A stretch of 64,000 nucleotides of DNA from Candidatus Daviesbacteria bacterium (GCA_027451625.1 DAIDIY010000048.1:26917-90916), one strand, 5' to 3'; counted from the first letter of the stretch, positions 34,795 through 59,439 are shown. Numbers and translations are program-made. The notes: generated by a model not told the origin, from the sequence alone.

Positions 34795-34847
34795 CCTAAA
34801 AAAGACTTTTGGTTGAAAATACTAGTTGGAGTAAATTTGTAGAATCA

Positions 34848-34935
34848 GGAGAGGTCGCATAGTTGGTCTAGTGCGGCGCAGTGCTAATGCGCTGTCCGAG
34901 AAATCGGACCGTGGGTTCGAATCCCACCCTCTCCG
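34848..34935 (+). tRNA. tRNA-Ser (GCU), type II
   Basis: Acceptor GGAGAGG/CCTCTCC, anticodon stem-loop GCGCA-GTGCTAA-TGCGC, long variable arm, T-arm GTGGG-TTCGAAT-CCCAC. Confidence 0.8.
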
Positions 34936-34958
34936 CTTTGATATTGAATTTTCTCAAT

Positions 34959-38192: not shown

Positions 38193-40031
38193 TCATTTAA
38201 TACGAACGTCAAAAAGTCGACTTTTAATCGAAATATTACCAGGAGCCCGAAGAGCAAAAATTGTCCAAAAATCTTTACACCCTCCACCTGGATGTGAGCA
38301 GTTAACATCAAACCCGGGAAGGGTAAGATCTCCTCGATCAGTTTGAAAAGTTACATCTGCTGTATATCCTCCTCCATTTTGAGAAACACTTACACCATTC
38401 ACACTACTATATGCCCCGCCTAATGCATTTGCTCTATCCTTCATTTGTGAAATTGAATACGGTGAACCTCCACCACAATTATCTGCAGGAAGGATATGGC
38501 TTTGGTCATCGCTTGTACCTTTAGTATAAACCACCCAAGCATTTAAAATATCGGTAATGTCTTCTTGTGAAAGCCATGGATTATTACGATCACATGTAGA
38601 AAATCCGCTTCCATAGCGATAATTGCTATACCATGCTTTATAGAACCAAGGGCTGGAAGAATCGTATGCCCCTCCTGATAAACAACCGCCGTTATTACAG
38701 GTTGTATCCCAACCTTTTGTATCCAAATATCCTCCAGGAGTAGAGACATATTGAGCCGAGACTCCATCGGGCAGAATCATCCCTTTTGTTTGATCAACAG
38801 CGTCTTTCCATGCTTGAGGAGGGTTTGCACCCTTACTTGCATCATATACTTGGCAGTGATCGCTGGTACATATAGTAGATCCACTTTGAATATAGTGGTA
38901 AGCATATGTTCGCGCAGCTATTGCTTGAGCTTTAAGAGCCGCTAAATTATTATCTGTCCAGGAAGCAGGCATCTCAGCTATACCATATAAATACTGTGTC
39001 TCAAAAGGCATAGTCCCTTGATCTGTATTAATTGTAGCTGGCATACTTCGCTGTATAGGAGTAGATCCGTAATATGCCTGAAGTATTGCATTATAGTCTT
39101 GGCCTGCCTTAGCTCTTGCCCAAGCTCCATACTGACTCATTCCATTTCTGCGGAAATTAGAACCATTTCCAGCATAAGCTCCAAAAGAAAATACAGTCAC
39201 AGAGCCAGAAGGTGCATTAGATTGCCAGCCAGACAATGATGCATTTGGGTCATCAGCCAAAGCCGCACTCCCTACAGAAACATTAAAATTTCCTGATTTA
39301 GCTGCTATTAAAGATTGTTGTTGTGCTGTAAGACTCGCTATCTTTGTTTCTAAATCCTTTTGGTATGCCTTAGCTGTAGTAATTACACCTCCCAAATACT
39401 GAGCATTTTTATCTACTTGAGCTTGAAAGGAAGCAAGACTTGCTTTGTCTTTTTCCAGTTTAGCCTTTTCATTTGCTAAATTAACCATATCTAAGGTTAC
39501 ACTGCCAATGACTCTTTGATCTTCTGCTGTCGTTGCTTGACTATAAGTCATCTCTCTTATTAGATCACCTGTATTATTAGATGAAAGAAGCATTATTAGT
39601 GGGTTAACTAAAAAAGATTGAATATAATATGCTCTAACCCTAGAATCAAGGAGTACTTGCTGTGTTGCCAGTTTATCCTCACGAACTTTAATATCCTCTT
39701 CCCTTTGACCTATCTGATCTGACAGATTATTTAATCTGATCTGTATTTGATTGAGTTGAACTTTTATCGCTTCCAGTTGACCTTCTAAAGGTTTGGTTGC
39801 ATTTATAGAATTTTGCAGATTGGTATTTAGTTGGTTAATTTCTTGTCCAATCGATTGTATGCATTGATCTGATGTATCGTTACATGTTGTATCAGCCCAA
39901 ATTAAATGGATAGGTGTAAAAAAAGAAATCAAGCCGATCATTAAGGAGAAAGCAAATATGGTTACAATTCTTTTTTTATATATTTTAGAAAACAACTTAT
40001 CTAGATGCATAAAAGACAAATGAGGATGCAT
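38193..40031 (-). CDS. SpoIID/LytB-domain protein with N-terminal coiled-coil (EnvC-like architecture); probable cell-wall remodelling enzyme
   Basis: N-terminal signal/TM, a long coiled-coil (aa 60-230), then NGMSQYGAWARAKAGQDYNAILQAYYGS matching the SpoIID/LytB signature (GMSQxGAxxMAxxGxxYxxILxHYYxG). Confidence 0.5.
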   Translation of the reverse strand: MHPHLSFMHLDKLFSKIYKKRIVTIFAFSLMIGLISFFTPIHLIWADTTCNDTSDQCIQSIGQEINQLNTNLQNSINATKPLEGQLEAIKVQLNQIQIRLNNLSDQIGQREEDIKVREDKLATQQVLLDSRVRAYYIQSFLVNPLIMLLSSNNTGDLIREMTYSQATTAEDQRVIGSVTLDMVNLANEKAKLEKDKASLASFQAQVDKNAQYLGGVITTAKAYQKDLETKIASLTAQQQSLIAAKSGNFNVSVGSAALADDPNASLSGWQSNAPSGSVTVFSFGAYAGNGSNFRRNGMSQYGAWARAKAGQDYNAILQAYYGSTPIQRSMPATINTDQGTMPFETQYLYGIAEMPASWTDNNLAALKAQAIAARTYAYHYIQSGSTICTSDHCQVYDASKGANPPQAWKDAVDQTKGMILPDGVSAQYVSTPGGYLDTKGWDTTCNNGGCLSGGAYDSSSPWFYKAWYSNYRYGSGFSTCDRNNPWLSQEDITDILNAWVVYTKGTSDDQSHILPADNCGGGSPYSISQMKDRANALGGAYSSVNGVSVSQNGGGYTADVTFQTDRGDLTLPGFDVNCSHPGGGCKDFWTIFALRAPGNISIKSRLFDVRIK

Positions 40032-40097
40032 ATTAAAATTTTACCACAGTAATCACTTACTAGACACTTATATCCAGCCTGAGATATTCTATTATTA

Positions 40098-42041
40098 ATG
40101 ATTCCCATTAAAAAGTACTTAAAAGTATCTGCTATATTAATCGTTCTTATGATGTTTTTTTCGATCTTTCCCAAAAAAGTTAAAGCTGATAATAATTTTA
40201 GTTATTCTCAATACTTTGGGACTCTCAATCAAATCTCAACTTCTGGAATAAAGGTTACAATTACAAATAATGCTGGCGACTTTGCATCTGGTTCAGATAT
40301 TTCTTATGCATGGGGTTTGTCTTATAATGGATCCCCGATTGATGTAGAAAACTCTATTCCCCAGATAAGTGGTAACACAATTACTGTTGATATTTATTCA
40401 TCATATTTTCAATGGTACGGCGCTGGGAACTACCAATTTTCATTATGGGTTGGAAAGTTTGGACAACCTCCTGATTATAATTCATCAAGTGCAAGTTATA
40501 TTATTCACAATAAAACAATCGTCTTCAAACAAGTTTGTCCTTCCAATACAGGATGTAGTGATGATGCGACTTTTAGCAACAACTCTTCTCCAATAAAAGT
40601 AGTTATTGGAGAAAATACAATGCCTAAGATAACAGTCAACAACCTTTATGATTACAATAGCTATTATTTTTGGTGGATTGATGGAAATAATAATTTAGAA
40701 AATTCTGGTTATAGCCTTGTAAATCCAGGTGAACAAACCGAACAAGTAGTAGGGGTTAACGCACCCAATTCTTTGCTTTCAAATGCATATGAAAATAGTA
40801 GCAATGCAAAATCTGTGACTTTATATCTTTGTATAACAACAGATTCGACAGGCATTCCTCCAACTTCTTCTGGATGTATAAATAAACAACAATTTGAATT
40901 TGATCCTCCATCAATCTACCCCTACCCCAACCCCATACAGATAAATCAACCTGCACAAGTATTAATCAGTTTTGGGGGAGTAGGAACTAATTACACATTC
41001 GTGCCGACATCTGGGTTCGGGTATCTCCTAAACTCAAACTCTCCAACACGAGATGGATCCTTTGTGATCCCAATAGGCACATTTTCTCAACCGGGGAATC
41101 CTTCATATTGTATGATTATAAATTCTGGAGCAAATCAAATAGGCGATGATCAAAATTGTCAATTTAAAGTAACATTTAATGTTCAGGCGTCTCCAAGCAC
41201 ATCTACAAATCTTCCTTGTGGACCCACAAGTTCGGCTTCTATATCTTTATACTCAGATGGTCAACAAACATCAACTCTAGAAATAAACAAATCAGGGAGT
41301 ATTGACTGGAATAATATTTGCATTCCCTCTCCGCAAGATGTAATTAAAATCTTTAAAACAGATTCTTCTGGGAATAATTTAGGTGACCCAGTCTTTTATA
41401 CCTATGTTGATTGTAAAAATGTGACAACAGGGCAACAAGACGATCCAAACATAGGTGATAGTCCCCTACCTTCAGGAAATTGTTCAGTAGGACCTTTTAC
41501 AGACACAGGAAACTATAAAGCTTATTATGTGTCTATTTTCTATCAAAACAACCCTCTAGCTTCTTTTCCATTCGTAGTTACCTTACCTAATACGCCTACA
41601 GTAACTACATCTCCTCAGTCTTTAACATCAGCTCCTCCTGCTCCAGTTGTTTCTAATTCTACCGGACAATTATGTAATGTAAAAACAGGTAAGTATTATA
41701 ATGGCTCACCAAGTAACCCAACTCCTCTGACTTTAGACGATATACCAAATCCAGCAGATAGAGGAGTTTATACTGCAGTAGGATGTGTTCCAACAGATCC
41801 AGCTATTTTTATAAATAACCTATTAAGAGTAGCAATTGGAGCGGGAGGTGGAATAGCACTTCTACTTATGGTAAGAGGTGTGTTTGAGATTATGGGTTCA
41901 GCTGGCAATCAAGAAGCAGTACATAAAGGTCGAGATCAACTTATTTCAGCGGGTATTGGACTCCTATTTATAATTTTTGCAGTCCTCCTTCTCAAATTCA
42001 TCGGAATTAATATATTGCAAATTCCGGGATTTTCTTCTTAA
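40098..42041 (+). CDS. large secreted Ser/Thr/Asn-rich protein ending in a VirB2/TrbC-like pilin module (pilin-fusion adhesin candidate)
   Basis: Signal peptide MIPIKKYLKVSAILIVLMMFFSIFPKKVKA. About 560 aa of low-complexity extracellular sequence. C-terminal 75 aa (LRVAIGAGGGIALLLMVRGVFEIMGSAGNQEAVHKGRDQLISAGIGLLFIIFAVLLL) has the same helix/GxxxE charged loop/helix pattern as the next four genes. Confidence 0.55.
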   Translation: MIPIKKYLKVSAILIVLMMFFSIFPKKVKADNNFSYSQYFGTLNQISTSGIKVTITNNAGDFASGSDISYAWGLSYNGSPIDVENSIPQISGNTITVDIYSSYFQWYGAGNYQFSLWVGKFGQPPDYNSSSASYIIHNKTIVFKQVCPSNTGCSDDATFSNNSSPIKVVIGENTMPKITVNNLYDYNSYYFWWIDGNNNLENSGYSLVNPGEQTEQVVGVNAPNSLLSNAYENSSNAKSVTLYLCITTDSTGIPPTSSGCINKQQFEFDPPSIYPYPNPIQINQPAQVLISFGGVGTNYTFVPTSGFGYLLNSNSPTRDGSFVIPIGTFSQPGNPSYCMIINSGANQIGDDQNCQFKVTFNVQASPSTSTNLPCGPTSSASISLYSDGQQTSTLEINKSGSIDWNNICIPSPQDVIKIFKTDSSGNNLGDPVFYTYVDCKNVTTGQQDDPNIGDSPLPSGNCSVGPFTDTGNYKAYYVSIFYQNNPLASFPFVVTLPNTPTVTTSPQSLTSAPPAPVVSNSTGQLCNVKTGKYYNGSPSNPTPLTLDDIPNPADRGVYTAVGCVPTDPAIFINNLLRVAIGAGGGIALLLMVRGVFEIMGSAGNQEAVHKGRDQLISAGIGLLFIIFAVLLLKFIGINILQIPGFSS

Positions 42042-42102
42042 TAAAATACTAATTTCTCTTTACTGTCTTGCCTAGAAAAATTTAAAAGATTAGTATGTTC
42101 TT

Positions 42103-42786
42103 ATGTTATCATTTTTGAGTAATACAGCTTACGCTCAGACATTAAAAATTCCTGGACTAGATCAAATTAAAGGTCCCCTAACTAATACAAATCGACCTTT
42201 TGATACTCCGGGAGGAGTTATCACAACAGGTTTAGATATTTTTTTTACAGTCATGACTTTTATTGCCTTTTTATGGATGATCTGGGGAGCTATTGCATAC
42301 ATATTTGCTGCTGGGGAGAAGGAAGCATTATCTAAAGCTAAAAATCGAATATTCGCTGCTTTAATAGGATTGTTTATAATTGCTTTATCTTATACAGCCA
42401 CCCAATTAATTTTTCAAATACTACAGCCTAATGTTCCTAATCCACTATCTCTTAGCATTATTCAACCTGTTTATGCACAAGCATCAACAGGTTATGGTTC
42501 AGATTTGAGTAAAACATATGCTTTTGGTAATTTCTTAGATTTTGGTAGCATTACTGCATTAATTATGCCTTTTATTTTCTCTATAGCTACTACTGGAGTA
42601 GTTATATACTTTCTAATTGGAGCTTTTAGATTTGTTATCTCAGCTGGTAATAAAGAATCAATAAGTAAAGCACAGTCAATGATTACCCATGCAGTAATTG
42701 GATTCTTTATTTTGATATTTATTTTTCTGATATTTCAATTTATTCCGCAATTTTTCGGTTTTAAGTTTAGTGTATTTGGCCAGTAG
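42103..42786 (+). CDS. VirB2/TrbC-like pilin-fold protein, internal tandem duplication (two modules)
   Basis: Module 1 FFTVMTFIAFLWMIWGAIAYIFAAGEKEALSKAKNRIFAALIGLFIIALSY. Module 2 FIFSIATTGVVIYFLIGAFRFVISAGNKESISKAQSMITHAVIGFFILIFIFLIF. Confidence 0.55.
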   Translation: MLSFLSNTAYAQTLKIPGLDQIKGPLTNTNRPFDTPGGVITTGLDIFFTVMTFIAFLWMIWGAIAYIFAAGEKEALSKAKNRIFAALIGLFIIALSYTATQLIFQILQPNVPNPLSLSIIQPVYAQASTGYGSDLSKTYAFGNFLDFGSITALIMPFIFSIATTGVVIYFLIGAFRFVISAGNKESISKAQSMITHAVIGFFILIFIFLIFQFIPQFFGFKFSVFGQ

Positions 42787-42834
42787 TTAACTTAAATATT
42801 TTATAAACAAAAATGTTAAGATTTAAAATCTAAA

Positions 42835-43371
42835 ATGACAAAAAAACTTTTAGTTTTATCTGTTTTTATAGTAGTCTTTTTTTTGGCTATTCCAAACAAC
42901 GTTTATGCTTGCAGTGGGCCTGGAGATTGTCCTGCTGGTGAATATTGCAACACTAGTAACCCTCCGGGAGAATGCCAGTCTGTCTTAGGACATATTAGTC
43001 CTCCCCAAGCTATTTCGAATATAGGTTACGGGTCTCAGGGTATTGGACACTTCTTAAGCCAGCTTATTCAACTTTTATATGTTGCTGCAGCAATTGTCTT
43101 TGTTTTTATGATCCTTTGGAGTGCATTTCAATGGATAATGTCAGCAGGAGATAAAGAAAAGCTAAACGCAGTAAGGAGCAGAATGATACATGCTATTATC
43201 GGTATAGCTCTTCTTGCAGCCGCTTTTGTAATAATTAGATTTTTCGGACAGGTTACAGGGTTTCATTTCTTCCAAGGACAAGAAAATCCAGACTTCTCTC
43301 TTCCTACACCTACTCCTTGTTTAATGTTTGTTCCAGGAGCAGGTCAATTGACTCCTCAGCCTTGTTCCTAA
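42835..43371 (+). CDS. VirB2/TrbC-like pilin-fold protein with Cys-rich N-terminal segment
   Basis: Signal peptide; CSGPGDCPAGEYCNTSNPPGEC; then LLYVAAAIVFVFMILWSAFQWIMSAGDKEKLNAVRSRMIHAIIGIALLAAAFVII. Confidence 0.55.
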   Translation: MTKKLLVLSVFIVVFFLAIPNNVYACSGPGDCPAGEYCNTSNPPGECQSVLGHISPPQAISNIGYGSQGIGHFLSQLIQLLYVAAAIVFVFMILWSAFQWIMSAGDKEKLNAVRSRMIHAIIGIALLAAAFVIIRFFGQVTGFHFFQGQENPDFSLPTPTPCLMFVPGAGQLTPQPCS

Positions 43372-43450
43372 ATTAAGTTTATATGCCTAATCTTTAGGTT
43401 CACTAGGACGAACTATTGACAAGGTACGTTAATCAATCTAAGATTAAATC

Positions 43451-43804
43451 ATGACTCCTACACCTACAGAATCACCAGCAACCACCATAGCAATTCAACC
43501 CCCAAGTGGTGTTGGAATAAGTCCTACTTATTCTATTAGCAGTTTATTCCACAATATCATAGGTTTATTTTTCGTAGTAGGTGCAATACTTGTAATATAC
43601 AATTTAATCATGGGTGCTTTTGATTGGATATTATCAGGTGGAGATAAGGAAAAAATAAGTGCTGCGAGAAATAAAATTATAAATGCTTTAATTGGTTTTG
43701 CCATACTTGCCGTTGCTTTTGTAATACTCAACTTTACTGGAAAATTAATTAATATTGATATTTCAAATCTTAATGTACCTAAATTAGGAAATCCTCCCTC
43801 TTAA
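43451..43804 (+). CDS. VirB2/TrbC-like pilin-fold protein
   Basis: IIGLFFVVGAILVIYNLIMGAFDWILSGGDKEKISAARNKIINALIGFAILAVAFVIL. Confidence 0.55.
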   Translation: MTPTPTESPATTIAIQPPSGVGISPTYSISSLFHNIIGLFFVVGAILVIYNLIMGAFDWILSGGDKEKISAARNKIINALIGFAILAVAFVILNFTGKLINIDISNLNVPKLGNPPS

Positions 43805-43870
43805 ATTTCTTCAACGATATAAACTAAGTTAGTTGTCAAAAATAAATATCTAATTTATTATTATTGTGAT

Positions 43871-44179
43871 ATGCAAGCCGCAGCAGGAATCGAGGATTTA
43901 CAAGCTTTAATTCAAAGAATTCTAGGATTAGTAGTAATTGGAGCATTCTTAGTTCTCTTATTCCTCTTCCTTTCAGCTGGATTCAAATATTTAACTTCAG
44001 GAGGAGAACCCAAAGGAGTTCAGTCAGCCCATAACACATATACATGGGCATTAATAGGTATCGCCCTTTTACTAATCGTATTTGTAGCCTTACGGTTAAT
44101 TTCTTCCTTTACCGGAGTAGATGTTACCAAGTTTTGTTTAGGTTTCCCTGGCTTGGAGAGTACTACTTCATGCTTTTAA
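43871..44179 (+). CDS. VirB2/TrbC-like pilin-fold protein
   Basis: LVVIGAFLVLLFLFLSAGFKYLTSGGEPKGVQSAHNTYTWALIGIALLLIVFVAL. Confidence 0.5.
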   Translation: MQAAAGIEDLQALIQRILGLVVIGAFLVLLFLFLSAGFKYLTSGGEPKGVQSAHNTYTWALIGIALLLIVFVALRLISSFTGVDVTKFCLGFPGLESTTSCF

Positions 44180-44970
44180 AATTAATTTCATCTGTAGTAA
44201 TAATAATTTTTATTTTTATTCCCCTTACAGTCTTTGCAGATCAAGCAAGCTCTCCATATAGTTCTCCTGGACCGACACAAGAATCACTTCCAAGCCCGAC
44301 TCTTCCCCCCGTCGATGCTTCAAAATTAGATAACGATTTTGTACTTACCAAAGTAGTTAACAAAGCTACTCTCCCTAATCTAGCAGATAGCATCACTCCA
44401 TCTTTATTTCCTTCTCCTGCTACTCAAATAGGTCTTGAAGAAAATAGTAGCTTCTTATCTTGGATAAACCAGTTTGCCTGTAGTATAGGAACTTTTATAG
44501 ATCAAATTATAGGAGGAACATTCTGCCGAGATCAATTAATCCTAGCCGCAAACAAAGGAGATCAATTTGCATCCAATGCAAGTATTGAAGCTCAATCTCA
44601 AAGGCCGTTTGATATAACGATTACTCCGATCTGGAAAAATCCTGGTCTAAAAGATTCTCCCAACCAAACAACTGGAGATAAAGATCTAACTAATATCAAT
44701 AATTCACAGGGAACATCCGTGGGTATTTATTCGCTAAACATGCCTCAACTAAAAGGAATTGATTGCCCAACTCCTCCATCCCCAGATACAAACTCACTTA
44801 ACAACGATAGTCAATATTATGCTTCTAATGGAGCTCTAACAGTTGGTGGTAATATAATTTCAGACTGTAGACTACCTGACACAAATGCTAGACGGAACGA
44901 GTACAATCAAGCAAACTTTCCTCCAGGGGTTGATCCAACTAATAAATTCATAACTCCTACACCTCCTTAG
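44170..44970 (+). CDS. secreted hypothetical protein (signal peptide)
   Basis: Start moved to the internal ATG at 44170 (MLLKLISSVVIIIFIFIPLTVFADQ...). The track ORF from 44044 would overlap the preceding pilin gene by 136 nt in another frame. Confidence 0.45.
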   Translation: MLLKLISSVVIIIFIFIPLTVFADQASSPYSSPGPTQESLPSPTLPPVDASKLDNDFVLTKVVNKATLPNLADSITPSLFPSPATQIGLEENSSFLSWINQFACSIGTFIDQIIGGTFCRDQLILAANKGDQFASNASIEAQSQRPFDITITPIWKNPGLKDSPNQTTGDKDLTNINNSQGTSVGIYSLNMPQLKGIDCPTPPSPDTNSLNNDSQYYASNGALTVGGNIISDCRLPDTNARRNEYNQANFPPGVDPTNKFITPTPP

Positions 44971-45058
44971 ATTTTGATTTAAACTCTTAGATACTTAACT
45001 CATCAAAAAATATGATTTTCCTTCTACACAAAAAATACAAATTATGTACAATTAAATT

Positions 45059-46792
45059 ATGCTTTCTGCCCGAGTATTAATTCTTTTATTCCTAACATTT
45101 ATATATTTAGTATTTACCAAAAATATTTATGCTGTCTCTCCTATCCCAACTCCGACAGATGATATAGCTCCAGGATCTATAATATTTAATAATTTTTCTC
45201 AAGATGCTTCAAAATATACGGTTCCTCCAACCCCAACACCGAATAGTACTTCAAGTTCTACCAACTCTGTTCCTGCTACATCTCAAAATTGGGGAGCAGC
45301 GCAACAAGCTCCTTTTACTCTAGACAATATGATGGGCGGAACTATTTGTTTCTTAGGAGGATTTGATCCATACGGCGCATGTCCAGTACAAAATGGTCCT
45401 TTAGTAAATGGACGAATTCAAGTTATGCTTTATAATCAAATTCCTGGAGATGGTGCTATTGGAGCTGCCAATAACTTAATGATCTCTTTATATAATCATC
45501 CTCCGACCTCAACCTCTTATTATTTAGCAAACTTGGGTAATTCAATCGGCATTACGAATACAGCTTATGCTGCATCTGGACCTGATCAAGGTTCTGGTTC
45601 GAGCCTAATTGTTCCTGTTTATAAAATATGGACATTCACCAGAAATATGGCTTACGTATTGATTATTTTTATAATTATAGCTGTTGGATTTATGATTATG
45701 TTCAGAAGCAAGATAAACCCGCAAACTACAATATCTATACAGTCAGCGATACCACGAATAGTAATAAGCTTGGCACTTATCACTTTCAGCTATTTCATTG
45801 CATCTTTATTAATTGACATATCTTTTTTTGGTGTTCAAATAATAGCTCAACTTTTTCTTCAAGCTCAGAATCAAGCAGGCGCTAATAATGCTTTTGATGT
45901 GAATAGTGTAGCTAACAATTCTAACATATTTCAATTATTGTCGATCGCTCAATCTCAGAGCTGGAATGTGGGTGAGATTATGACAGCTATCTGGAATGTA
46001 ACTTTAAATGCAGCCGGAAATAATTTTGCACAGATCGGTCATACAGGGAACATCGCTGGAGCAATAGGTTCAATTGTCACTGGATTAATTTTAGGAGTCG
46101 GAGGGTTAATAGGAGGAACTTTGGGAGGAATACTTATACCTCTTATACTTATGATAGTATTTTTTATTCAGACATTCAGACTTTTATGGAGCCTCCTTAA
46201 TGCATACATTACTATTCTTATATACACAGTGATTGGCCCGTTCCTAATTCTATATTCTGCTATTCCTGGGAAAGGAGGAGTTTTGACAAACTGGTGGAAA
46301 ACCATTTTAGGAAATTCGCTAATTTTTCCAGCTGTTATAGCCGTATTTTTATTTTCCGGTGTCATTCTAGGAACGCCTTCTACTGATTGGAATGGTGCTC
46401 GTCCTCCACTTTTGAATTTTGACAGCGGAGAGATATTAAGACTGGTAATCTCATACGGACTTCTTATCGGTCTACCTGCTATTCCCGGGATGGTCAAAGA
46501 ATTACTAGGTATTAAAGATATTCAAGGTATCCCTGGAGCAGCTATGGCTGGAGCTATGGCTGGGGTTGGAGTAGTTCAAGCGGGAGTCAATCTAACACAA
46601 ATTCCAGCTACTATTCAACAACGAAGACTTGCATGGAGTAGATACAACGCTGGAGTCGATAACGCTCCCGCTCCAAGAACTAGAACTGGTGCGACAGGTA
46701 GATATGCATTTATAAGGAATCTTCCATCCAACATTGTTGACTTGTTCGGTGGACAAGGTAATGGAACTGGTGGTGGCGGTGCGTCACACTAA
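45059..46792 (+). CDS. VirB6/TrbL-like polytopic membrane protein (candidate T4SS channel component)
   Basis: Signal peptide, ~150-aa extracellular segment, then at least six TM helices (aa 190-470), then a Gly-rich tail. Size and topology resemble VirB6/TrbL. No sequence motif, so assignment is by architecture and context. Confidence 0.4.
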   Translation: MLSARVLILLFLTFIYLVFTKNIYAVSPIPTPTDDIAPGSIIFNNFSQDASKYTVPPTPTPNSTSSSTNSVPATSQNWGAAQQAPFTLDNMMGGTICFLGGFDPYGACPVQNGPLVNGRIQVMLYNQIPGDGAIGAANNLMISLYNHPPTSTSYYLANLGNSIGITNTAYAASGPDQGSGSSLIVPVYKIWTFTRNMAYVLIIFIIIAVGFMIMFRSKINPQTTISIQSAIPRIVISLALITFSYFIASLLIDISFFGVQIIAQLFLQAQNQAGANNAFDVNSVANNSNIFQLLSIAQSQSWNVGEIMTAIWNVTLNAAGNNFAQIGHTGNIAGAIGSIVTGLILGVGGLIGGTLGGILIPLILMIVFFIQTFRLLWSLLNAYITILIYTVIGPFLILYSAIPGKGGVLTNWWKTILGNSLIFPAVIAVFLFSGVILGTPSTDWNGARPPLLNFDSGEILRLVISYGLLIGLPAIPGMVKELLGIKDIQGIPGAAMAGAMAGVGVVQAGVNLTQIPATIQQRRLAWSRYNAGVDNAPAPRTRTGATGRYAFIRNLPSNIVDLFGGQGNGTGGGGASH

Positions 46793-46797
46793 ATAAA

Positions 46798-49110: not shown

Positions 49111-49255
49111 AGGCTTATCTCCTTTTACAACAATATTCTTTATAGGATATTATACCATTTTGAGTTAAGCTTAGCCTAATTCAAACTATAATCTCTTTCA
49201 AATTTCTTGTCAATTTTATCTAACCGATTTCTATCAAAAATCTAAAAATAAAAGT

Positions 49256-50629: not shown

Positions 50630-50988
50630 GCTTTCTCCTGCTCGGGATATAAATATCTTTAGAAAACTTCCAGCACAAAATTTTAATCTTCTATCTTTGT
50701 TTTCTAAAAATGATGGTCGGTCTCCGGACTTATCAAAATAAATTGAATTACCGTTGCGGCACAGTTCTCGAATTACACGAGATTCCCTTCTTTGAATCTT
50801 ATCTGTTGTCTACAGACGATTCACCACAACTGAAATTTACTCCAACTTTTTTTGAAAAACAAGAGGGTAAACACGTTCATACTAACTTGCTAAGTTGTAC
50901 ATCCAAATAAGTCTTATTAATGAGTAATTGATCTACTTTGAACTTCTTGTCACGTATTTTTTCACGCTGTATAAAGATGGAGTAAAGT

Positions 50989-52146
50989 ATGGATGCACAT
51001 CCTGTCCCACAAAATGTGACTTCTTTTGAGTTCCACCTGGTTGGAGATATGACTCTAAAGCAATTTGGATATCTTGCAACGGGGTTAATTATTGCCTATA
51101 TCACATTCTTATTTTTTTTTAATAACCTTCCGTATGTAGCAACTCCAATTATTGCTATCTCTGCTGGATTAGGAGCAGCTTTTGCCTTTTTGCCCATCTA
51201 TAATCGTCCTTTAGATCACTGGGTAAACGTCTTCTTTCATGCTATATTCTCTCCTACCCAGAGAGCATGGAGAACCCCAACAGACAAACCAATACCAAAT
51301 GACCTAAGAGCTGAATTAATTAAAAACCGCCTTCATCTTTTTATGCAAAGCACTGCCATACCCCAATCCTCCTATGGAACACCATTTCCTTCTAACTCTG
51401 CATCTATTAATTTAAGACGTCTACCTATAAATACCCACCCAAACTTAAATTTTCCTTCACACCCTAACTCTTCTAATAAACCTGAACCATCTCAAAATCA
51501 AACCTTAAAACCGACTAAAACAGGCTCGACAACCTCTAAGATGCCTACCCCTGAGGAACTAAACCACTTAGTAGAAATGGCCCGACAGACCCAAATGCTT
51601 CAGAGTAAAACTCTCGAATTGGAAAAAGAGCTCTCCCAACTTAAGTCTTTGCTTGCATTACAATCTACAAAAGGATCTTCTCCTGTTCAGCTGTCACAAA
51701 CAGGATCAGTAGTTCAGCAAGCTGGATCACAATTAAATCAATTGCAAAAACAGGCCATACAAGTTGCACAGCAAAAAGTTCAACCTCCAATCCCTAACCC
51801 AACTCCTCCTGCTAAACCCCCTAAAGTCGTGATAATAGAGCCTCCAAAACAAACAAAAACAGTAATTGCCTTAACATCGCTACCCAATATTATTAACGGT
51901 ATTATTACAGATACAGTCGGAAATTATCTCGAAAATGTAATTGTCATAATTCATAATCAGGATAACCTACCAGTCAGGGCTTTAAAAACCAATAAACTTG
52001 GCCAGTTCACAGGAGCCACGCCGTTACCTTCTGGTGTTTACACTATTACAATGGAAAAGGAAGGATTTGATTTTGACACATTACAAATAACTCTAAACAA
52101 CCAGATTGTTCCACCAATTAAAGTTACGGCAAAAAAAGGAGGTTAA
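50989..52146 (+). CDS. VirB10/TrbI-like architecture: TM anchor, Pro-rich linker, coiled-coil, C-terminal beta domain
   Basis: Two TM helices (aa 35-75); Pro-rich aa 100-290; coiled-coil (LEKELSQLKSLLALQ); C-terminal domain GIITDTVGNYLENVIVIIHN...GVYTITMEKEGF resembling a carboxypeptidase-regulatory or Cna-B-like beta-sandwich. Directly precedes VirB4. Confidence 0.35.
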   Translation: MDAHPVPQNVTSFEFHLVGDMTLKQFGYLATGLIIAYITFLFFFNNLPYVATPIIAISAGLGAAFAFLPIYNRPLDHWVNVFFHAIFSPTQRAWRTPTDKPIPNDLRAELIKNRLHLFMQSTAIPQSSYGTPFPSNSASINLRRLPINTHPNLNFPSHPNSSNKPEPSQNQTLKPTKTGSTTSKMPTPEELNHLVEMARQTQMLQSKTLELEKELSQLKSLLALQSTKGSSPVQLSQTGSVVQQAGSQLNQLQKQAIQVAQQKVQPPIPNPTPPAKPPKVVIIEPPKQTKTVIALTSLPNIINGIITDTVGNYLENVIVIIHNQDNLPVRALKTNKLGQFTGATPLPSGVYTITMEKEGFDFDTLQITLNNQIVPPIKVTAKKGG

Positions 52147-53136
52147 ATGTTCTCTACTCAACAAGCTATATTAATCGAGGACATTAAAGATGATCTAATA
52201 TTTTTAAAAGATGGCGGCGCATCCTTAATTCTCAATACTACTGCTGTTAATTTCGGTTTACTTTTTGAGACAGAGCAAATGGCTATTATCGATGCTTTCG
52301 CTCAACTGTTAAACTCTCTTTCATTCCCAATACAAATTGTTATTCGCTCAAAAAAAATGGATATCTCTTCATACCTTAGCACACTTGAGAGAGCTTTAAA
52401 GTCACAAACTAACCAACTCCTCGCTCAACTAACTCTAGATTACCGGAATTTTGTTGAAGGATTAATTAAGGAAAACGATGTACTCGATAAACAATTCTAT
52501 GTTTGCCTTTATGTTTCAGCAATCGAAATGGGAATTTTACCTAAACAACAAACTGATAGGAGTAGAAAAGCTAAAGCAATGCTAGAAACAAGAAGAGATT
52601 TAATATTAAGGCAACTGAACAGAATTGGGCTCAAAGCGAGACAGCTTGCAACAGCTGAGTTAATTAATCTCTTTTATGATATCTATAACCCAGATAATTG
52701 GTACTTCTCCACTGATGACGAAAGTGTAGTCGATCCTGAAGCAGAAAGAAAAGAAAACGAATTACAAACGTCAACTCCCAACATACCTTCACAACTCAAA
52801 CGAATTGTTCCTCAAACACCTATTGTTCAACACACACTTCAAAGTAACCTCCAATTAAGACCGATACCTCAACTCGTTCAACATCAATCACATCTAGAAC
52901 CTAGATCTCCACTACAACAAAATTCTACCCCTCTTTCTCAAAACAACCCACAAGCTACAAATATATTTCAAAAACCTCAAATTCCATTTCAAATACCAGT
53001 TAATGGGCCTACAGTAAATCCTTTACCTCCAATAAAACAAAATCCACCAAATAGCCAACAGCCATCGCAGAACAATTCGATAAATAGGGCCTCTCCGTTT
53101 ATAGTTGAAGAACTAAAAGATGACTTTGGATCCTAA
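52147..53136 (+). CDS. VirB4/TrbE/CagE N-terminal domain protein (first part of a split VirB4) with Gln/Pro-rich tail
   Basis: N-terminus AILIEDIKDDLIFLKDGGASLILNTTAVNFGLLFETEQMAIIDAFAQLLNSLSFPIQIVIRS matches the VirB4/CagE_TrbE_VirB N-domain. Residues ~230-329 are Q/P-rich. Overlaps the next ORF by 17 nt in another frame. Confidence 0.6.
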   Translation: MFSTQQAILIEDIKDDLIFLKDGGASLILNTTAVNFGLLFETEQMAIIDAFAQLLNSLSFPIQIVIRSKKMDISSYLSTLERALKSQTNQLLAQLTLDYRNFVEGLIKENDVLDKQFYVCLYVSAIEMGILPKQQTDRSRKAKAMLETRRDLILRQLNRIGLKARQLATAELINLFYDIYNPDNWYFSTDDESVVDPEAERKENELQTSTPNIPSQLKRIVPQTPIVQHTLQSNLQLRPIPQLVQHQSHLEPRSPLQQNSTPLSQNNPQATNIFQKPQIPFQIPVNGPTVNPLPPIKQNPPNSQQPSQNNSINRASPFIVEELKDDFGS

Positions 53137-54850
53137 ACCTAAAATAGATCTTACATTGCAAGATGTCGTTGCCCCTGCTGAATGGGAGGTAGATTTTTCA
53201 CACCTACGGATCAATCAAACTCTTTTTAGAAGCTTTATAGTTACTTCATATCCAAGATTCGTTGATCCAAATTGGTTAGAACCACTAATTGCGTTTGACC
53301 ATTCACTTACCATTTCTATGTTTATTTATCCAACTAACTCCGCTGGTGTTATGGATGACTTAAAAAGAAAAATTGCAGAGATGGAGGCAACTCTCCAATC
53401 AGATTTAGATAGAGGCAGAGCTGTTGATCCGTCTGTTGAAGTTGCCTTAGAAGACGCAGAAGCTCTACAAGACCAATTGGCAAGAGGTACAGAGAGATTC
53501 TTTCAATATTCTTTGTATGTAACAGTACCTGCAAAAAATAAAACTGAACTTAATAACATATCACAGCTTGTAACATCAACTTTGAGAAGCATTTCAATTA
53601 CGGCATATCCATCTGTTTTGGAAATGGAAGATGGTTTCAAGTCAACTCTTCCAGTAGGAGAAGATATGCTATATGTTCCTCATAATATGGATACCACTTC
53701 TTTAGCCACTACGTTTCCATTTACTTCCTCTGAATTAACATCGCCCCAAGGAGTAGTTTATGGAATTAATGAGCATAATGATTCCTTAATAATCTTTGAT
53801 AGATTCAGCCAAGAAAATGCTAATTCAACAATTCTTGCTACCTCTGGAGCTGGAAAATCGTATCTGGTCAAACTAGAAACACTGCGATCTCTAATGTTAG
53901 GTACAGAGGTCATTGTTATTGATCCTGAGCGTGAATACTTAAAACTTGCTCAAGCTGTCGGAGGAGATTATATAAATTTCTCCACGAACTCTCCCATAAA
54001 GATTAATCCATTTGATCTTCCAGAAGTCGCAGACCAAGGAGAAAACGAACTGGGGAGAAAGATACTGTCATTAAGTGGCTTCCTAAAACTAGTATTAGGA
54101 GAACTTACCCCCCAAGAGTCAGCCATTTTAGATCGAGCTTTAAATACTACATATAGAATTAAAGGTATTACTGAAGATACTAGAACACAAATGGGAAAAA
54201 AGGATACTGAAATGCCACTAATGGAAGATCTATATAAAGTACTTTTGGGCATGGAGGATCAAGTATCAACAGGACTGGCGGTCCGACTTGAAAGATTCAT
54301 CAGAGGATCGCTTGCGGGAATTTTCTCTGCTCCATCAAATTTAAGAATTTCCAACCTACTGACAATCTTTTCTGTCCGTGATTTACCAGAACAACTTCGG
54401 CCTCTAGCAATGCATCTAATTTTAGATTACATTTGGACTAAGATTAGGAAGGAACAAAAAAAGCGGATATTGGTTGTTGATGAAGCATGGTATCTGATGA
54501 AATATCCTGACTCTGCCAGCTTTCTAGTTGAAATGGTAAAAAGGGCTAGAAAGTATTTTCTTGGAGTAACTACAATCAGCCAGGATGTTGAAGATTTCTT
54601 AGAAAGAGATCATGGAAAAGAGGTTATCTCAAACTCATCAATGCAAGTTTTACTTAAACAAGCGCCTGCATCAATTGAAAGGATAGGTGAAACATTCAAT
54701 CTCTCTCAAGGAGAAAAAAGGCTATTACTTTCATCTGGAGTCGGACAGGGCTTATTTTTTGCTGGTAATACTCATGTCGCGATGAGAGTAGTTGCTTCTC
54801 CAAAGGAACACCAATTAGTTACAACTAATCCCACTGAATATCAAAACTAA
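53120..54850 (+). CDS. virB4: VirB4-family type IV secretion ATPase (C-terminal catalytic part)
   Basis: Walker A ILATSGAGKSYLVK; Walker B RILVVDEAWYLM; downstream GVTTISQDVEDF; upstream FRSFIVTSYPRFVDPNWL. Confidence 0.8.
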   Translation: MTLDPKPKIDLTLQDVVAPAEWEVDFSHLRINQTLFRSFIVTSYPRFVDPNWLEPLIAFDHSLTISMFIYPTNSAGVMDDLKRKIAEMEATLQSDLDRGRAVDPSVEVALEDAEALQDQLARGTERFFQYSLYVTVPAKNKTELNNISQLVTSTLRSISITAYPSVLEMEDGFKSTLPVGEDMLYVPHNMDTTSLATTFPFTSSELTSPQGVVYGINEHNDSLIIFDRFSQENANSTILATSGAGKSYLVKLETLRSLMLGTEVIVIDPEREYLKLAQAVGGDYINFSTNSPIKINPFDLPEVADQGENELGRKILSLSGFLKLVLGELTPQESAILDRALNTTYRIKGITEDTRTQMGKKDTEMPLMEDLYKVLLGMEDQVSTGLAVRLERFIRGSLAGIFSAPSNLRISNLLTIFSVRDLPEQLRPLAMHLILDYIWTKIRKEQKKRILVVDEAWYLMKYPDSASFLVEMVKRARKYFLGVTTISQDVEDFLERDHGKEVISNSSMQVLLKQAPASIERIGETFNLSQGEKRLLLSSGVGQGLFFAGNTHVAMRVVASPKEHQLVTTNPTEYQN

Positions 54851-54855
54851 ACAAC

Positions 54856-57387
54856 ATGGCTCAAGATACGGAACAAAAGCAAGATCTTTCAGACTTAGAG
54901 CAAGCCTTAAGTTGTGTAAACCCCTTTCGTCGTAAAACTTTACAAGTACTCTACAAATCACATCCTAAAACATATCAAAAGATAATTGAACAAACAATTA
55001 AGATTTTAATTAAAAATGAACCTTCTTTAAAAAATATTTTTGAATATTTACATAAACAGGAAAATGGTAATGAAATCTTTTTAAATCATCTTTACAAAGA
55101 TAATTTCTACTACACAAATCTTTGGAAAAAAGCTCATCCCGACCTGACTAGTCAGGGGGTTATAAATAATAAAATTGAAGAAATAAATAAAACAGCCATC
55201 GCAACTCGAGAACAAAAACAAAAGGTTTTGTCCGAAAAAAGTGTTTTTGAACCTCTCAATATCCAAAATGAGGTAAAAAATACAGATACAAAGAAAAATG
55301 TTCAGACAGAAAAAGAAGAAACATCGAAGGCCAGCCGACCTCCATCTCAACCCGAAAAAATTTTGTCTGGATCTAAAAAAACAACTCTTCCTAATGCTGC
55401 TTTCCCTCCTTATTCAGCAGCTCCTATAACTAACCCCGTTAACCAAACCTCAGATTCCCTTATAGACTCATCAAAAATTTCTCCCTCGGAAGATAAGATA
55501 TCCAGAGAAGCTAATATTAATATAGTCCCAATAGACCTTCAGGAAATAACCGTTCCAAAGGTTGCCCCATTAATTTCTTCTACTAAAAAAGTTGCTGGGT
55601 CCTCAGTTACCAAAAACATTCTTTCCAATGCAGCTATCTTAATAAAAAAAACAGTTGGTAAGATTTTGATCCCTGAAAACATTATTTATTTGCCCGCTGT
55701 TTTAGCCAGCGCTGCTGTAGGTGGAGCAGCTGCACCTATTATAGGTATCTCTCCAGCTGTTGGTATGGCCCTTGGCGGAGGTGCAGGCGCTACTATTATT
55801 CCGCAAGGTACTAAACGAGGTTGGTTTAACAACACCCTTAATATGGCTTTAAACTTTATACCGGGACCGGAGGGGACAGCAATTAATCTGGGAAGAAGAG
55901 TCTTAGGTAGCAGACTCGGAGTCAAGCAAGTTGCTCAAAAAGGTCTGATTGCATTTTTTAGTACTCCTCTTGGATGGGGAACTATTGGAGTTATTATTTT
56001 TTTATTTATCGTTATCTTAATTACCCAACAGAGCTCTGCCATGCTTCCTCCTTACCAGGTAGAAGGAATTTCTGAAGTCTCTGTGGCAAATTCCACACCA
56101 GGAGCTTCACTATCTCCAACAAACACTCCTGGCAGCGGAGAATCTCCAATTGGTTATGCTATACCCATAAGAGATACATCTGTTATTCCAAATACAAGTA
56201 ACACAATCGCACAAGCTGTTCAAAGTCTTTGTGGTGGTCAAGGGTATGGTGAGCCTCACTTGGAACTTTGGCAAGACCTCATTCAAGCAAGTGTTGATAA
56301 GGGTTGGAATCCATCATTTGTATCTGCGCTATGGATAGAAGAAACAGGTGCTCAATGTCCTGCTGTATATGACGATGCAGTAGGGTGTGGAAATGATCCA
56401 AATAAAAGTTCTCCTGATGCAAAAAAACGATTATTTAATTATGCTCTACCTTGTTTAGATAGTTTTTTTACTAATTGGTTTCCGAGAGGTTATAGTAATG
56501 ATCAGTTTCAAAAATTTATGTGTATTTATGCTGATGGCCCTAGCGGGTATCCGGCATGTAACTCCTCAAAATATACTGGGTTTATTTCTAGAGTAAGTTA
56601 TTGGTATACAAAACTATCTGGAAATAATTCTAGTATATCTCCTACCCCCACAACAGAATCTATCCCAAACGATATTACAGGGAAAATAAACACTATAAAT
56701 CAGCAATTTCATATCGATTTTAGTAAGTTTGATTTTCAGAGTGCGGGGTTAACTACATCTCAATATAACCAAGATCTTCAATGGGCCTGGGCGGATTTAA
56801 ATCTTGCAAAACAAGTTGCTCCTAAATTTGATACACTTCTTGGAAATGTACAGATAGAACTAGGATCCCTGCCGTATAATTACAGGAGCGGCCAAACTGT
56901 TAACTTCTCTAAAAACTACTATTTCTTCACTACAGAAAATTTTTTCAAACAGAATTTCATTCACGAGTTAACCCATGTTATAAACGATGGCCAACCTGGA
57001 AAATATGGAGTCGATTTATGGAACCAAGCCATCACAAAAGAAGGATACATTAGTCAATACTCTTCCGCTGCCACCCCTGGAGATGTTTCTCAAATTTGTA
57101 CATATAGTTATCCATTAGCAGATGAAGAACAATATATGTCAGCTGGAAACACAAACCCAAACGATACAATCCTTCAATACATTGATGCAAGAGACGACGA
57201 GGATTTCTCAGAATCTGTAGCTTATTATATTACCAGCTTTTATGATCCTCCTATTGTAGAAATGCCTTATGGTAACAGCGCTACAAGTCCTTCCTGTGCA
57301 GGTGTAGAAAATTCTACCAATCCGTTTACTGGTGGAGGGCACCCCTACCATACAGAATTTATAAAAAAGATATTAGGCGGGCAGTAA
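54856..57387 (+). CDS. large multi-domain protein: Gly-rich TM segment, lysozyme/transglycosylase-like region and HExxH metallopeptidase-like motif (candidate T4SS-associated cell-wall hydrolase or effector)
   Basis: 843 aa. Central Gly/Ala-rich hydrophobic block (AAVGGAAAPIIGISPAVGMALGGGAGA), then ITQQ. GQGYGEPHLELWQDLIQASVDKGWNPSFVSALWIEETG resembles lysozyme/SLT-type active-site regions. FIHELTHVINDG carries HExxH. Confidence 0.35.
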   Translation: MAQDTEQKQDLSDLEQALSCVNPFRRKTLQVLYKSHPKTYQKIIEQTIKILIKNEPSLKNIFEYLHKQENGNEIFLNHLYKDNFYYTNLWKKAHPDLTSQGVINNKIEEINKTAIATREQKQKVLSEKSVFEPLNIQNEVKNTDTKKNVQTEKEETSKASRPPSQPEKILSGSKKTTLPNAAFPPYSAAPITNPVNQTSDSLIDSSKISPSEDKISREANINIVPIDLQEITVPKVAPLISSTKKVAGSSVTKNILSNAAILIKKTVGKILIPENIIYLPAVLASAAVGGAAAPIIGISPAVGMALGGGAGATIIPQGTKRGWFNNTLNMALNFIPGPEGTAINLGRRVLGSRLGVKQVAQKGLIAFFSTPLGWGTIGVIIFLFIVILITQQSSAMLPPYQVEGISEVSVANSTPGASLSPTNTPGSGESPIGYAIPIRDTSVIPNTSNTIAQAVQSLCGGQGYGEPHLELWQDLIQASVDKGWNPSFVSALWIEETGAQCPAVYDDAVGCGNDPNKSSPDAKKRLFNYALPCLDSFFTNWFPRGYSNDQFQKFMCIYADGPSGYPACNSSKYTGFISRVSYWYTKLSGNNSSISPTPTTESIPNDITGKINTINQQFHIDFSKFDFQSAGLTTSQYNQDLQWAWADLNLAKQVAPKFDTLLGNVQIELGSLPYNYRSGQTVNFSKNYYFFTTENFFKQNFIHELTHVINDGQPGKYGVDLWNQAITKEGYISQYSSAATPGDVSQICTYSYPLADEEQYMSAGNTNPNDTILQYIDARDDEDFSESVAYYITSFYDPPIVEMPYGNSATSPSCAGVENSTNPFTGGGHPYHTEFIKKILGGQ

Positions 57388-57409
57388 ATTATTTGTTAAT
57401 ATAATAATT

Positions 57410-57856
57410 ATGAAGTATTTAGATTTAAAAATAACAGCTTCATTAATAATAGCTGTTGTTGTTTTAGGAATAATTTATATTAGCTTTATACACAAAAAGG
57501 TAAACATAGAAAAACCGATTTCTTTCAATATCACTCCCAACATAGTTTCCACAGATCCTAACCCGCTAGATAATGCAGTCATATTTTCAAAGGAATCTTT
57601 TAGTATTACTTTCAACTTACCTATTCAAAATGTAGGTGAGTTAAAACATACAATTACACCTAAAATGGATTATTCATTAAAACTCTCTGATGATCGAAAA
57701 ACTGCAATTTTTACACCCAACAAACCTTTACCTATAGGAAAAGAGTATACTCTTCAAATCACAGGAGACACAAAGATGGATGGACCTTCTGGAATGATTC
57801 TTTTAGATCAAACCTTAATTTACCATATTAGAACAATTCCATATAATGGAGTTTAA
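57410..57856 (+). CDS. small membrane-anchored protein with Ig-like beta domain (hypothetical)
   Basis: N-terminal TM; the remainder is beta-rich. Last gene of the plus-strand block before dnaN. Confidence 0.35.
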   Translation: MKYLDLKITASLIIAVVVLGIIYISFIHKKVNIEKPISFNITPNIVSTDPNPLDNAVIFSKESFSITFNLPIQNVGELKHTITPKMDYSLKLSDDRKTAIFTPNKPLPIGKEYTLQITGDTKMDGPSGMILLDQTLIYHIRTIPYNGV

Positions 57857-59431: not shown

Positions 59432-59439
59432 TGATTTGA

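Follow-up and report, generated by a model that had tools for sequence, protein, structure and literature searches.

A probable Patescibacteria-type type IV secretion locus beside the replication origin of a Daviesbacteria genome, with a divergent VirB6-like protein and an antisense cobalamin riboswitch

The DNA analysed here is a 64,000-nucleotide stretch from Candidatus Daviesbacteria bacterium (GCA_027451625.1, DAIDIY010000048.1:26917-90916), referred to as the window, with positions counted from its first letter. At 38193-57856 it carries a block of genes that is very probably a chromosomal type IV secretion system (T4SS) of the Patescibacteria type: adjacent to the origin of replication (oriC), derived from the MPF-FATA lineage, without DNA-processing parts, and consisting of two operons on the (+) strand together with an antisense slot that stands outside the conserved machine. 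Operon 1 (40098-46792) encodes a pilin fusion, five further pilin modules, a secreted protein and a VirB6-like protein; operon 2 (50989-57856) encodes PrgI/VirB3, TrsD, VirB4, a presumed two-domain wall hydrolase and an Ig-like protein. An original prediction, made from the sequence alone, had taken this block as the most likely seat of an undescribed system. Every open reading frame (ORF) it listed was found where it had been placed, but the novelty is not upheld, because the same system has already been described and reviewed (PMC10633639, PMC12102498, PMC12857230). Thus, the T4SS itself would be a further Daviesbacteria example of a widespread Patescibacteria system, essential in one cultivated species, and adds nothing categorical. 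The genes of the two operons are as follows; transmembrane (TM) segments and signal peptides, here and below, are from a Kyte-Doolittle hydropathy scan.

40098-42041 (+): secreted pilin-fusion protein, 647 amino acids (aa); PF18895 at residues 571-635, E 7.4e-5; TM 574-592 and 622-640
42103-42786 (+): tandem double VirB2-like pilin, 227 aa, two hairpin modules; PF18895 in two stretches; NCBIfam Mbov_0395 pilin-like, E 2.2e-8
42835-43371 (+): VirB2-like pilin with signal peptide and Cys-rich N-terminal extension; PF18895 35.7 bits, E 9.4e-9
43451-43804 (+): VirB2-like pilin; PF18895 30.7 bits
43871-44179 (+): VirB2-like pilin; PF18895 26.1 bits, E 8.9e-6, just below the gathering score; aligns with its paralogues and is kept in 13 related loci
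44170-44970 (+): secreted 266-aa protein; its variable slot follows the pilins and precedes the VirB6-like gene; true start near 44170; N-terminal signal/TM helix at 5-23
45059-46792 (+): putative divergent, extended VirB6-like polytopic membrane protein, 577 aa, by topology, position and fold searches
50989-52146 (+): PrgI/VirB3-like membrane protein, 385 aa; PF12666 at residues 5-91, 27.2 bits (cut-off 27); TM 26-44 and 50-68
52147-53136 (+): TrsD/TraD-like protein, 329 aa, with a Pro/Gln-rich tail; NF041427, E 2e-6 (profile 15-200 of 201)
53120-54850 (+): VirB4 ATPase of the MPF-FATA lineage, 576 aa; NF045971 (CD1110 family) 378.9 bits (cut-off 325), profile 184-734; PF19044, E 8e-24
54856-57387 (+): membrane-anchored two-domain ectoprotein, 843 aa (orf843), directly downstream of virB4; HExxH motif (HELTH); member of the slot family described below
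57410-57856 (+): small membrane-anchored Ig-like (Big_5) protein, 148 aa, last gene of the VirB4 operon; PF13205, E 8.4e-8; N-terminal TM helix

A VirB4 scan of one genome per GTDB species gave 427 relatives, of which the best 80 loci (L001-L080) were retained; the complete Daviesbacteria chromosome CP066688 was looked up in addition (L081). The proteins of the window were compared with these loci by tblastn, and ORFs were called in the loci. Those VirB4 relatives with a named lineage are Patescibacteria, mostly Daviesbacteria/Microgenomates, and the best 80, where a lineage is named, belong to Daviesbacteria (up to 77% identity) and other Microgenomates; by its sequence, the VirB4 of the window appears to be a member of the Patescibacteria clade. 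The order of genes is SmpB, a 600-aa protein, DUF5657, a bPH protein and the SpoIID-type gene on the (-) strand; the pilin fusion, the pilins, the variable secreted protein(s) and the VirB6-like gene (+); the antisense slot (-); PrgI, TrsD, VirB4, a large membrane protein and Big_5 (+); and then dnaN, a resolvase-like gene and dnaA (-). From SmpB to dnaN, this order is identical in CP066688, and dnaN/dnaA occupy the same position in 66 of the 80 loci, which come from several candidate Microgenomatia orders. Because the flank extends over 10 kb, the counts for the VirB6-like gene (26-28 loci) and for the pilins (11-13) are limited. Two outcomes had been named beforehand as counting against the original prediction: small two-helix proteins belonging to an unrelated family such as holins, and a VirB4 that is a solitary remnant. 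What was found is PF18895 pilins and a VirB4 that is not a solitary remnant, its neighbourhood being kept in 75-77 of the 80 related loci.

The genes dnaN (57867-58967, -) and dnaA (59703-61022, -) lie directly beyond the locus in the window. GC skew changes sign at about 59.3 kb, from negative to positive, and the following feature lies close to the flip.

59432-59702 (no strand): probable oriC, lying between dnaA and the resolvase-like gene; contains a cluster of six DnaA boxes (59567-59700), of which two are perfect

Because of the DnaA boxes and the skew flip, oriC is placed about 4.6 kb from the end of virB4. The locus is origin-proximal, as the original prediction had it. Both T4SS operons are on the (+) strand to the left of oriC and so are transcribed head-on to replication, an orientation which the relatives have in common, whereas the genes of the antisense slot, like dnaA and dnaN, are transcribed in the direction of replication.

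The VirB4 ATPase with its TrsD partner, the PrgI/VirB3 anchor and the VirB2-type pilins are shown by homology. The catalytic motifs attributed to VirB4 are indeed there: Walker A as GAGKS and Walker B as VVDEAW. TrsD matches, in addition to its own family, positions 2-188 of the CD1110 VirB4 profile (E 2.4e-6), indicating that it is equivalent to the N-terminal domain of VirB4 as a polypeptide of its own; together, TrsD and VirB4 cover complementary parts of the CD1110 model. The description of this pair as a split VirB4 was therefore apt as far as the two complementary proteins are concerned, but there is no lesion: trsD is a separate gene encoding 221-341 aa in 77 of the 80 related loci (in CP066688 it is called PF26593 TraC-like), which rules out a frameshift or pseudogene, and in the window its stop overlaps the start of virB4 by 17 nucleotides (nt). 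The gene directly upstream of trsD, kept in 75 of the 80 loci, encodes the 385-aa protein that had been taken for a Pro-rich VirB10. It is PrgI/VirB3-like instead (PF12666), with a coiled-coil and Pro-rich linker and a CarboxypepD_reg β-sandwich (PF13620, residues 302-371) following the PrgI-like part.

The pilin array comprises six PF18895 modules in five genes, i.e., four stand-alone genes with five modules between them and the 647-aa fusion; three pilin genes exceed the PF18895 gathering score and two narrowly miss it. Thus, the pilin fold of the original prediction stands and its count of five separate VirB2/TrbC-like genes does not. In the alignment of modules, all six hairpins have a common (S/A)GG(D/N/E)KE loop. 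The reading of these small two-helix proteins as holins, or as some other unrelated family, is ruled out by the PF18895 and NCBIfam pilin matches and by the conserved context. The two modules of the double pilin are separate genes with a 4-nt overlap in L006, L007, L008 and CP066688; the linker between them in the window keeps a signal-peptidase-like VYAQA motif. The 647-aa protein does end in a pilin-like module, as had been noticed: it has a signal peptide, an ectodomain of about 540 aa without a match, and a VirB2-like pilin hairpin at its C-terminus (PF18895). In L006, L007 and L081 the pilin array likewise begins with a counterpart of the fusion, shorter at 167-384 aa, and the fusion is plausible as a candidate minor pilin or adhesin. 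The 266-aa secreted protein had no family match in Pfam, NCBIfam or profile searches and, among the related loci searched by tblastn, has a single relative (L008, 29% identity); in CP066688 two other proteins take its place, a 643-aa M23 peptidase and one of 163 aa.

In published work, Patescibacteria T4SSs are MPF-FATA-derived, have TrsD with VirB4, PrgI and VirB6, have no relaxase and lie near dnaA/dnaN, and their VirB2 genes form arrays of 2-11, with particular abundance in Microgenomatia (PMC10633639, PMC12102498, PMC12857230). In Southlakia epibionticum the T4SS (SEML1_0006-0019) was found by Tn-seq to be essential for epibiotic growth (Wang et al. 2023, PMC10633639). The locus in the window resembles the system of Southlakia and those of the survey by Quinonero-Coronel et al. 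(2025, PMC12102498) in its MPF-FATA VirB4 with adjacent TrsD, PrgI/VirB3, putative VirB6 and divergent PF18895 pilin array, in a presumed wall hydrolase directly downstream of virB4, in having no relaxase and a coupling-protein-like gene elsewhere, and in the dnaA/dnaN proximity seen in Microgenomatia. It is unlike them in five respects: its putative VirB6 is too divergent for HMMs and is recognised by fold and position only; its presumed hydrolase has two Pfam-unknown domains instead of M23, SLT or lysozyme; its first pilin gene has a 540-aa ectodomain; its PrgI has a long C-terminal extension; and a cobalamin (B12) riboswitch antisense unit, unmentioned in PMC10633639, PMC12102498 and PMC12857230, lies between the operons.

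The Gram-positive MPF-FATA systems (pGO1 Trs, pIP501 Tra, pCF10 Prg, and CTn2 of C. difficile) have in common with the window a CD1110-family VirB4, a split like that of TrsD and TrsE, PrgI, a bifunctional membrane-anchored wall hydrolase (PrgK/TraG; presumed in the window), and no VirB7, VirB9, VirB10 or VirB11. In contrast to them, the window has no relaxase, no adjacent type IV coupling protein (T4CP), no PrgB-type adhesin and no recognisable VirB8-like PrgL/TraM, whereas it does have VirB2-like pilins, which they lack, and is chromosomal and vertically inherited. A Pfam scan of most ORFs of at least 90 aa across the 64 kb found none of the relaxase, VirB11, VirB9 or VirB10 families, in agreement with the original prediction for the first three (for VirB7, Pfam has no usable model). 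The remaining sizeable ORFs are housekeeping genes, a tyrosine recombinase and one VirD4/TraG-like ATPase:

15610-17952 (-): VirD4/TraG-type coupling-protein-like (T4CP-like) ATPase, unlinked to the locus; PF10412, PF12696, PF01935, PF01580

About 35 kb separate it from virB4 and about 20 kb from the edge of the locus; the distance had been stated as 25 kb. A canonical conjugative MPF-FATA system is recognised by a relaxase and a linked coupling protein, and the window has no relaxase and, as its sole T4CP-like gene, this distant one; a diderm VirB/D4 (MPF-T) system is recognised by a VirB7/VirB9/VirB10 core and VirB11, and here the supposed VirB10 is PrgI-like. The view that the block is no standard conjugation module, and that contact with a host cell is plausible for an episymbiont, agrees with these findings, the conjugation-specific parts being missing.

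The polytopic 577-aa protein had been proposed as VirB6-like from its architecture. Its family comprises 141 homologues, none of which has a name or a Pfam domain of the VirB6/TrbL type. Of 18 members, a single one touched PF04610 (TrbL/VirB6; E 0.0013), and the PDB gave no match to a family profile. A model built by AF2 from 59 aligned sequences has a mean pLDDT of 73.5, with 10-residue blocks of about 84-97 over most of the membrane-helix core (residues ~180-270 and ~360-500). When this model was compared with the PDB by Foldseek, the TrwI/VirB6 chains of the R388 T4SS came first (probability 0.87, E 0.12, not significant), in line with the proposal. Two independent structure searches gave as their best matches TrwI (PDB 7O3V, 8RT9) and Legionella DotA (PDB 9NGY), the latter a VirB6 homologue under the unified nomenclature, with identities of 10-19% and TM-scores, normalised to the target, of 0.34-0.40. 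Like TrwI of R388 and DotA of Dot/Icm, the window protein is a predicted polytopic helical membrane protein encoded with pilins; unlike them, it has an additional ectodomain of about 190 aa at its N-terminus and ends in a tail rich in Gly. Because of the fold matches, the position and the topology, the best reading of the 577-aa protein, supported but not proven, is an extended, divergent VirB6, presumably the channel or pilus platform. A 2025 survey found VirB6 "scarce" in Microgenomatia and suspected extreme divergence (PMC12102498). Thus, for the VirB6 that seemed scarce in this group by HMM surveys, a family of more than 140 proteins listed as "hypothetical" can be put forward.

Directly downstream of virB4, 59 of 65 genes fall into one single-linkage cluster, and the ectodomains of this slot family are modular: by Pfam, M23 occurs in 13, SLT in 5, CHAP in 3, Amidase_2 in 2 and Amidase_3 in 1. 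The member in the window, orf843, does contain the HExxH motif noted for it (HELTH) and consists of a cytoplasmic N-terminal part, TM helices and two domains that are each common to subsets of the relatives; the protein has no family match in Pfam or NCBIfam, and homologue searches with it gave 1 and 3 matches. In domain A (residues ~405-610), the positions N-P, W, E, G-C and C are invariant; its profile found nothing in the PDB. A profile search detected an SLT-like domain in 25 slot members at the place of domain A in the window, and domain A may be lysozyme-like. Domain B (~611-843) has an invariant HExxH and a downstream E-D-F-x-E (H93, E94, H97, E172), and its profile weakly matched WLM (0.006), a Zn-metallohydrolase (0.038) and anthrax LF (0.15) in the PDB; its motifs point to a zincin of the HExxH...E type. 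The whole protein is presumed to be a VirB1-type wall hydrolase, as in Gram-positive T4SSs and Southlakia (PMC12102498), a reading that is supported, not proven. The gene downstream of virB4 would thus be a modular wall-hydrolase slot including two domain types which Pfam does not recognise. The small Ig-like protein that follows was correctly identified (Big_5, PF13205); in 37 loci, every one from the Daviesbacteria group, its gene follows the hydrolase gene and adjoins dnaN.

The region between the two operons is transcribed from the opposite strand and contains three features, one of which, the riboswitch, the original prediction had missed:

50698-50843 (-): cobalamin (B12) riboswitch aptamer; RF00174 51.4 bits (gathering score 31.5), E 6.9e-10, model 1-189
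49256-50629 (-): orf457, soluble 457-aa protein with a C-terminal four-Cys zinc ribbon; no TM segment, no signal peptide
46798-49110 (-): orf770, soluble 770-aa protein, second slot gene; no TM segment, no signal peptide

The riboswitch is full-length, with the B12 box AAGUCCGGAGACCGACC; a mechanically called ORF at 50710-50910, which overlaps it on the other strand, is spurious. It occurs at the same position in 28 Daviesbacteria T4SS loci (at ~7.1-8.2 kb in most of the loci L001-L042). Rfam recognises RF00174 in L001, L002, L003 and L006, and the AdoCbl-II variant (RF01689) takes its place in L035, L018, L015 and L038; eight Daviesbacteria loci scanned with Rfam have no riboswitch. A covariance model built from five copies found it in 24 loci and the window at E ≤1e-4, always on the (-) strand and always in the Daviesbacteria group (L001-L042), and had no match in L043-L080. 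Across 25 copies, 90.8% of the cells in the helices are paired, and 8 pairs have changed on both sides. There are 82 double-substitution cells compared with 25.9 in shuffles, and the covariation score is 0.439 compared with at most 0.099 in slid controls and is reached by 0 of 500 shuffles, in an alignment that was fitted to the model and so favours the structure.

The aptamer precedes the start of orf457 by 68 nt, and AGGAGA stands about 6 nt ahead of the orf457 ATG. The first gene downstream of the riboswitch belongs to one family, cluster 0 or "gene A", in 21 of 27 cases (287-517 aa); its members share one invariant Ser and one invariant Cys, carry a CxxC...C...C zinc ribbon at the C-terminus, and match nothing in Pfam, the PDB or PADLOC, and no known B12-related domain. 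The HMM of cluster 0 does not reach orf457 directly, and the link is only via L035, which matches orf457 at E 1e-77 and the cluster-0 HMM at E 1.5e-8; transitively, orf457 would be a divergent member of the riboswitch-associated gene A family. In Daviesbacteria, gene A often has behind it a gene for a very large soluble protein that evolves fast, orf770 in the window. The riboswitch is expected to govern expression of orf457 according to the supply of B12, with orf457 repressed when corrinoid is available. Like known cobalamin riboswitches (RF00174, RF01689), it is a full-length aptamer with a B12 box and covariation-supported helices, 5′ of a gene start with a Shine-Dalgarno sequence; unlike them, it precedes a gene outside the known families of B12 transport, B12 salvage and B12-independent isozymes, and the unit sits antisense inside a T4SS locus. 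In the literature searched, no report joining a cobalamin riboswitch with the candidate phyla radiation (CPR)/Patescibacteria was found, nor one of a B12-riboswitch/zinc-ribbon module nested in a T4SS locus. The riboswitch provides a testable handle on two opaque genes in the middle of the locus, and may reveal how cofactor-dependent epibionts sense the supply from the host.

For orf770 there are 24 matches among 1.84 billion representative proteins, all of them closest to the slot proteins of L001, L003, L007 or L008, and the profile of the family finds the slot gene adjoining the VirB6-like gene in the six closest relatives examined. The family, which has no match in Pfam, NCBIfam, PADLOC or the PDB, is small, fast-evolving and lineage-restricted. 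No database contigs encoding orf770 or the VirB6-like protein of the window were found on record. Because a near-consensus promoter-like site lies between orf457 and orf770, orf770 may be transcribed on its own, outside riboswitch control. The slot between the VirB6-like gene and prgI is always antisense and its content is variable: there are at least 12 clusters unlinked by BLAST, some of them unannotated giant proteins (1200-1760 aa), and in loci outside Daviesbacteria the slot can be occupied by NAD synthase, ClpB, ATPases of the AAA_14/DUF4143 type or, in one case, a T4CP. By hhalign, the only link between slot clusters is that of the orf770 cluster with one other (92% over 63 columns). 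Neither a motif nor a secretion signal common to the different slot protein families was found, and a motif HMM found nothing further. The T4CP is of the VirD4/TraG type and is encoded at 5736-7910 (-) of L059, a non-Daviesbacteria Microgenomatia locus. Thus, the original view of orf457 and orf770 as soluble orphans is borne out by their lack of TM segments and family matches, but their families and their variable slot indicate that they are not conserved T4SS components.

By analogy with known systems, VirB4 with TrsD, anchored by PrgI, would extract pilin hairpins from the membrane, and these would polymerise on the VirB6 platform while the hydrolase opens the cell wall locally; the pilin paralogues, and the pilin with the large N-terminal ectodomain, would diversify the surface or tip that makes contact with the host. 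The likely role, with Southlakia as the analogy, is host contact with transfer of protein or another substrate. Conjugation is unlikely because there is neither a relaxase nor an adjacent coupling protein.

There are two other functions such a locus might have. A machine for DNA uptake or release, like the ComB or Ced derivatives of T4SSs, would not need a relaxase, and a T4CP-like ATPase lies in the window; VirB4 weakly matches CedB, the archaeal DNA-import ATPase (E 4.7e-14), and T4SS loci of the ABY1 class co-localise with competence genes (PMC12102498). However, the CedB score of 51.9 bits against a cut-off of 700 reflects generic VirB4 similarity, no competence genes were found beside the locus among the Pfam-scanned ORFs of the window, and natural competence in Southlakia requires ComEC and type IV pili, the T4SS being essential independently of ComEC (PMC12857230), so that this function is improbable here. 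The transfer module of an integrated conjugative element, active or decaying, would accord with the MPF-FATA ancestry, with the tyrosine recombinase (14293-15159) and T4CP-like gene some 35 kb away, and with a fragment of an IS-type integrase/transposase (HTH + rve_3) at 33856-34533. A mobile origin is nevertheless hard to reconcile with a dnaN/dnaA-adjacent position that is the same in 66 of 80 loci from several candidate orders, with a GC content that is low (about 35%) and even along the whole 64 kb, with the lack of a relaxase among the scanned ORFs, and with a published VirB4 phylogeny of vertical, class-specific inheritance (PMC12102498); it is scarcely credible.

A further possibility would add to the Patescibacteria-type T4SS rather than replace it: that orf457 and orf770 are functionally coupled to the machine, as B12-responsive substrates or effectors, chaperones or regulators, or through convergent transcription that modulates the pilin/VirB6 operon. 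In 28 Daviesbacteria loci, the riboswitch and gene A are flanked by the VirB6-like gene and prgI despite fast divergence of the proteins, every member of the orf770 family whose position could be examined sits in the slot, and the antisense unit ends 5 bp from the stop codon of the VirB6-like gene. Both proteins lack a signal peptide and TM segments, as expected of T4SS substrates, and no known B12-related domain accounts for the slot genes. Against this, synteny is kept in the lineage over the whole distance from SmpB to dnaN, so that adjacency is weak evidence; the slots of other Microgenomatia hold housekeeping or unrelated genes; the different slot families have no motif in common; eight of the Daviesbacteria loci scanned with Rfam lack the riboswitch; and the promoter-like site suggests that orf770 may be outside its control. 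Coupling is thus unlikely on present evidence. The more specific proposal, that the antisense module connects B12 from the host with the secretion apparatus (its products being, for example, T4SS substrates or regulators induced by B12 starvation), is equally doubtful; if true, the module would give Patescibacteria T4SSs their first candidate for a cargo or a control circuit.

The reading of the block as a Patescibacteria-type T4SS for host contact has several points weighing against it. Essentiality of the T4SS is known from one species of Saccharibacteria, and no function has been shown for any Microgenomatia T4SS. The pilus of the window is a prediction; no locus protein matched a VirB8-like (NTF2-fold) subunit such as PrgL, TraM or TcpC by sequence in Pfam or NCBIfam, the candidates for one being the 266-aa secreted protein, Big_5 and the C-terminal part of PrgI; and the T4CP-like ATPase elsewhere in the window makes coupling of DNA or protein possible. 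For orf843, the hydrolase role of the protein itself is drawn from its relatives and its motifs: in an hhalign comparison of domain A with the SLT-like domain of the relatives, the catalytic-Glu helices are in register, but with a very weak probability of 3%, and the AF2 model of the ectodomain, from a 4-sequence alignment, has a pLDDT of 41.8 and was left unused for fold searches.

At the other end of the block, transcribed divergently from the pilin operon, is the gene which the original prediction had described, correctly, as a SpoIID-type enzyme with a coiled coil:

38193-40031 (-): SpoIID-type cell-wall enzyme, membrane-anchored by one N-terminal TM helix, with a PcsB-like coiled coil; PF08486, E 3.8e-16; PF24568, E 0.0012 (weak)

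The same adjacency was found in L007 and in the complete chromosome CP066688; this gene may be part of the T4SS. Between the 600-aa protein and the SpoIID-type gene lie a small DUF5657 (PF18901) membrane protein (37291-37572 (-) in the window; 2023-2256 in L081) and a bPH_2 protein, an arrangement common to the window and CP066688. Just upstream of the conserved block, a transfer-messenger RNA (tmRNA; 33414-33803, -), the transposase fragment, two tRNA-Ser genes and SmpB are crowded into 33414-35399.

Further away, a group I intron (RF00028, 80.6 bits) lies at 24643-24843 (+) within an ORF-free gap, 23735-25306, in which GC skew is locally positive; no host rRNA or tRNA gene was detected around the intron. 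A tRNA-Ile gene with the anticodon UAU (15177-15249, -) adjoins the tyrosine recombinase and the T4CP-like gene. Finally, three adjacent genes at 10544-13467 (-) resemble parts of ATP-citrate lyase (ACL) or of citryl-CoA synthetase/lyase: one has a citrate synthase C-terminal domain, one is CoA-binding/ligase, and one has ATP-grasp_2 with the ACL citrate-binding domain. Such citrate-lyase-like genes are unexpected for a metabolically reduced CPR genome.

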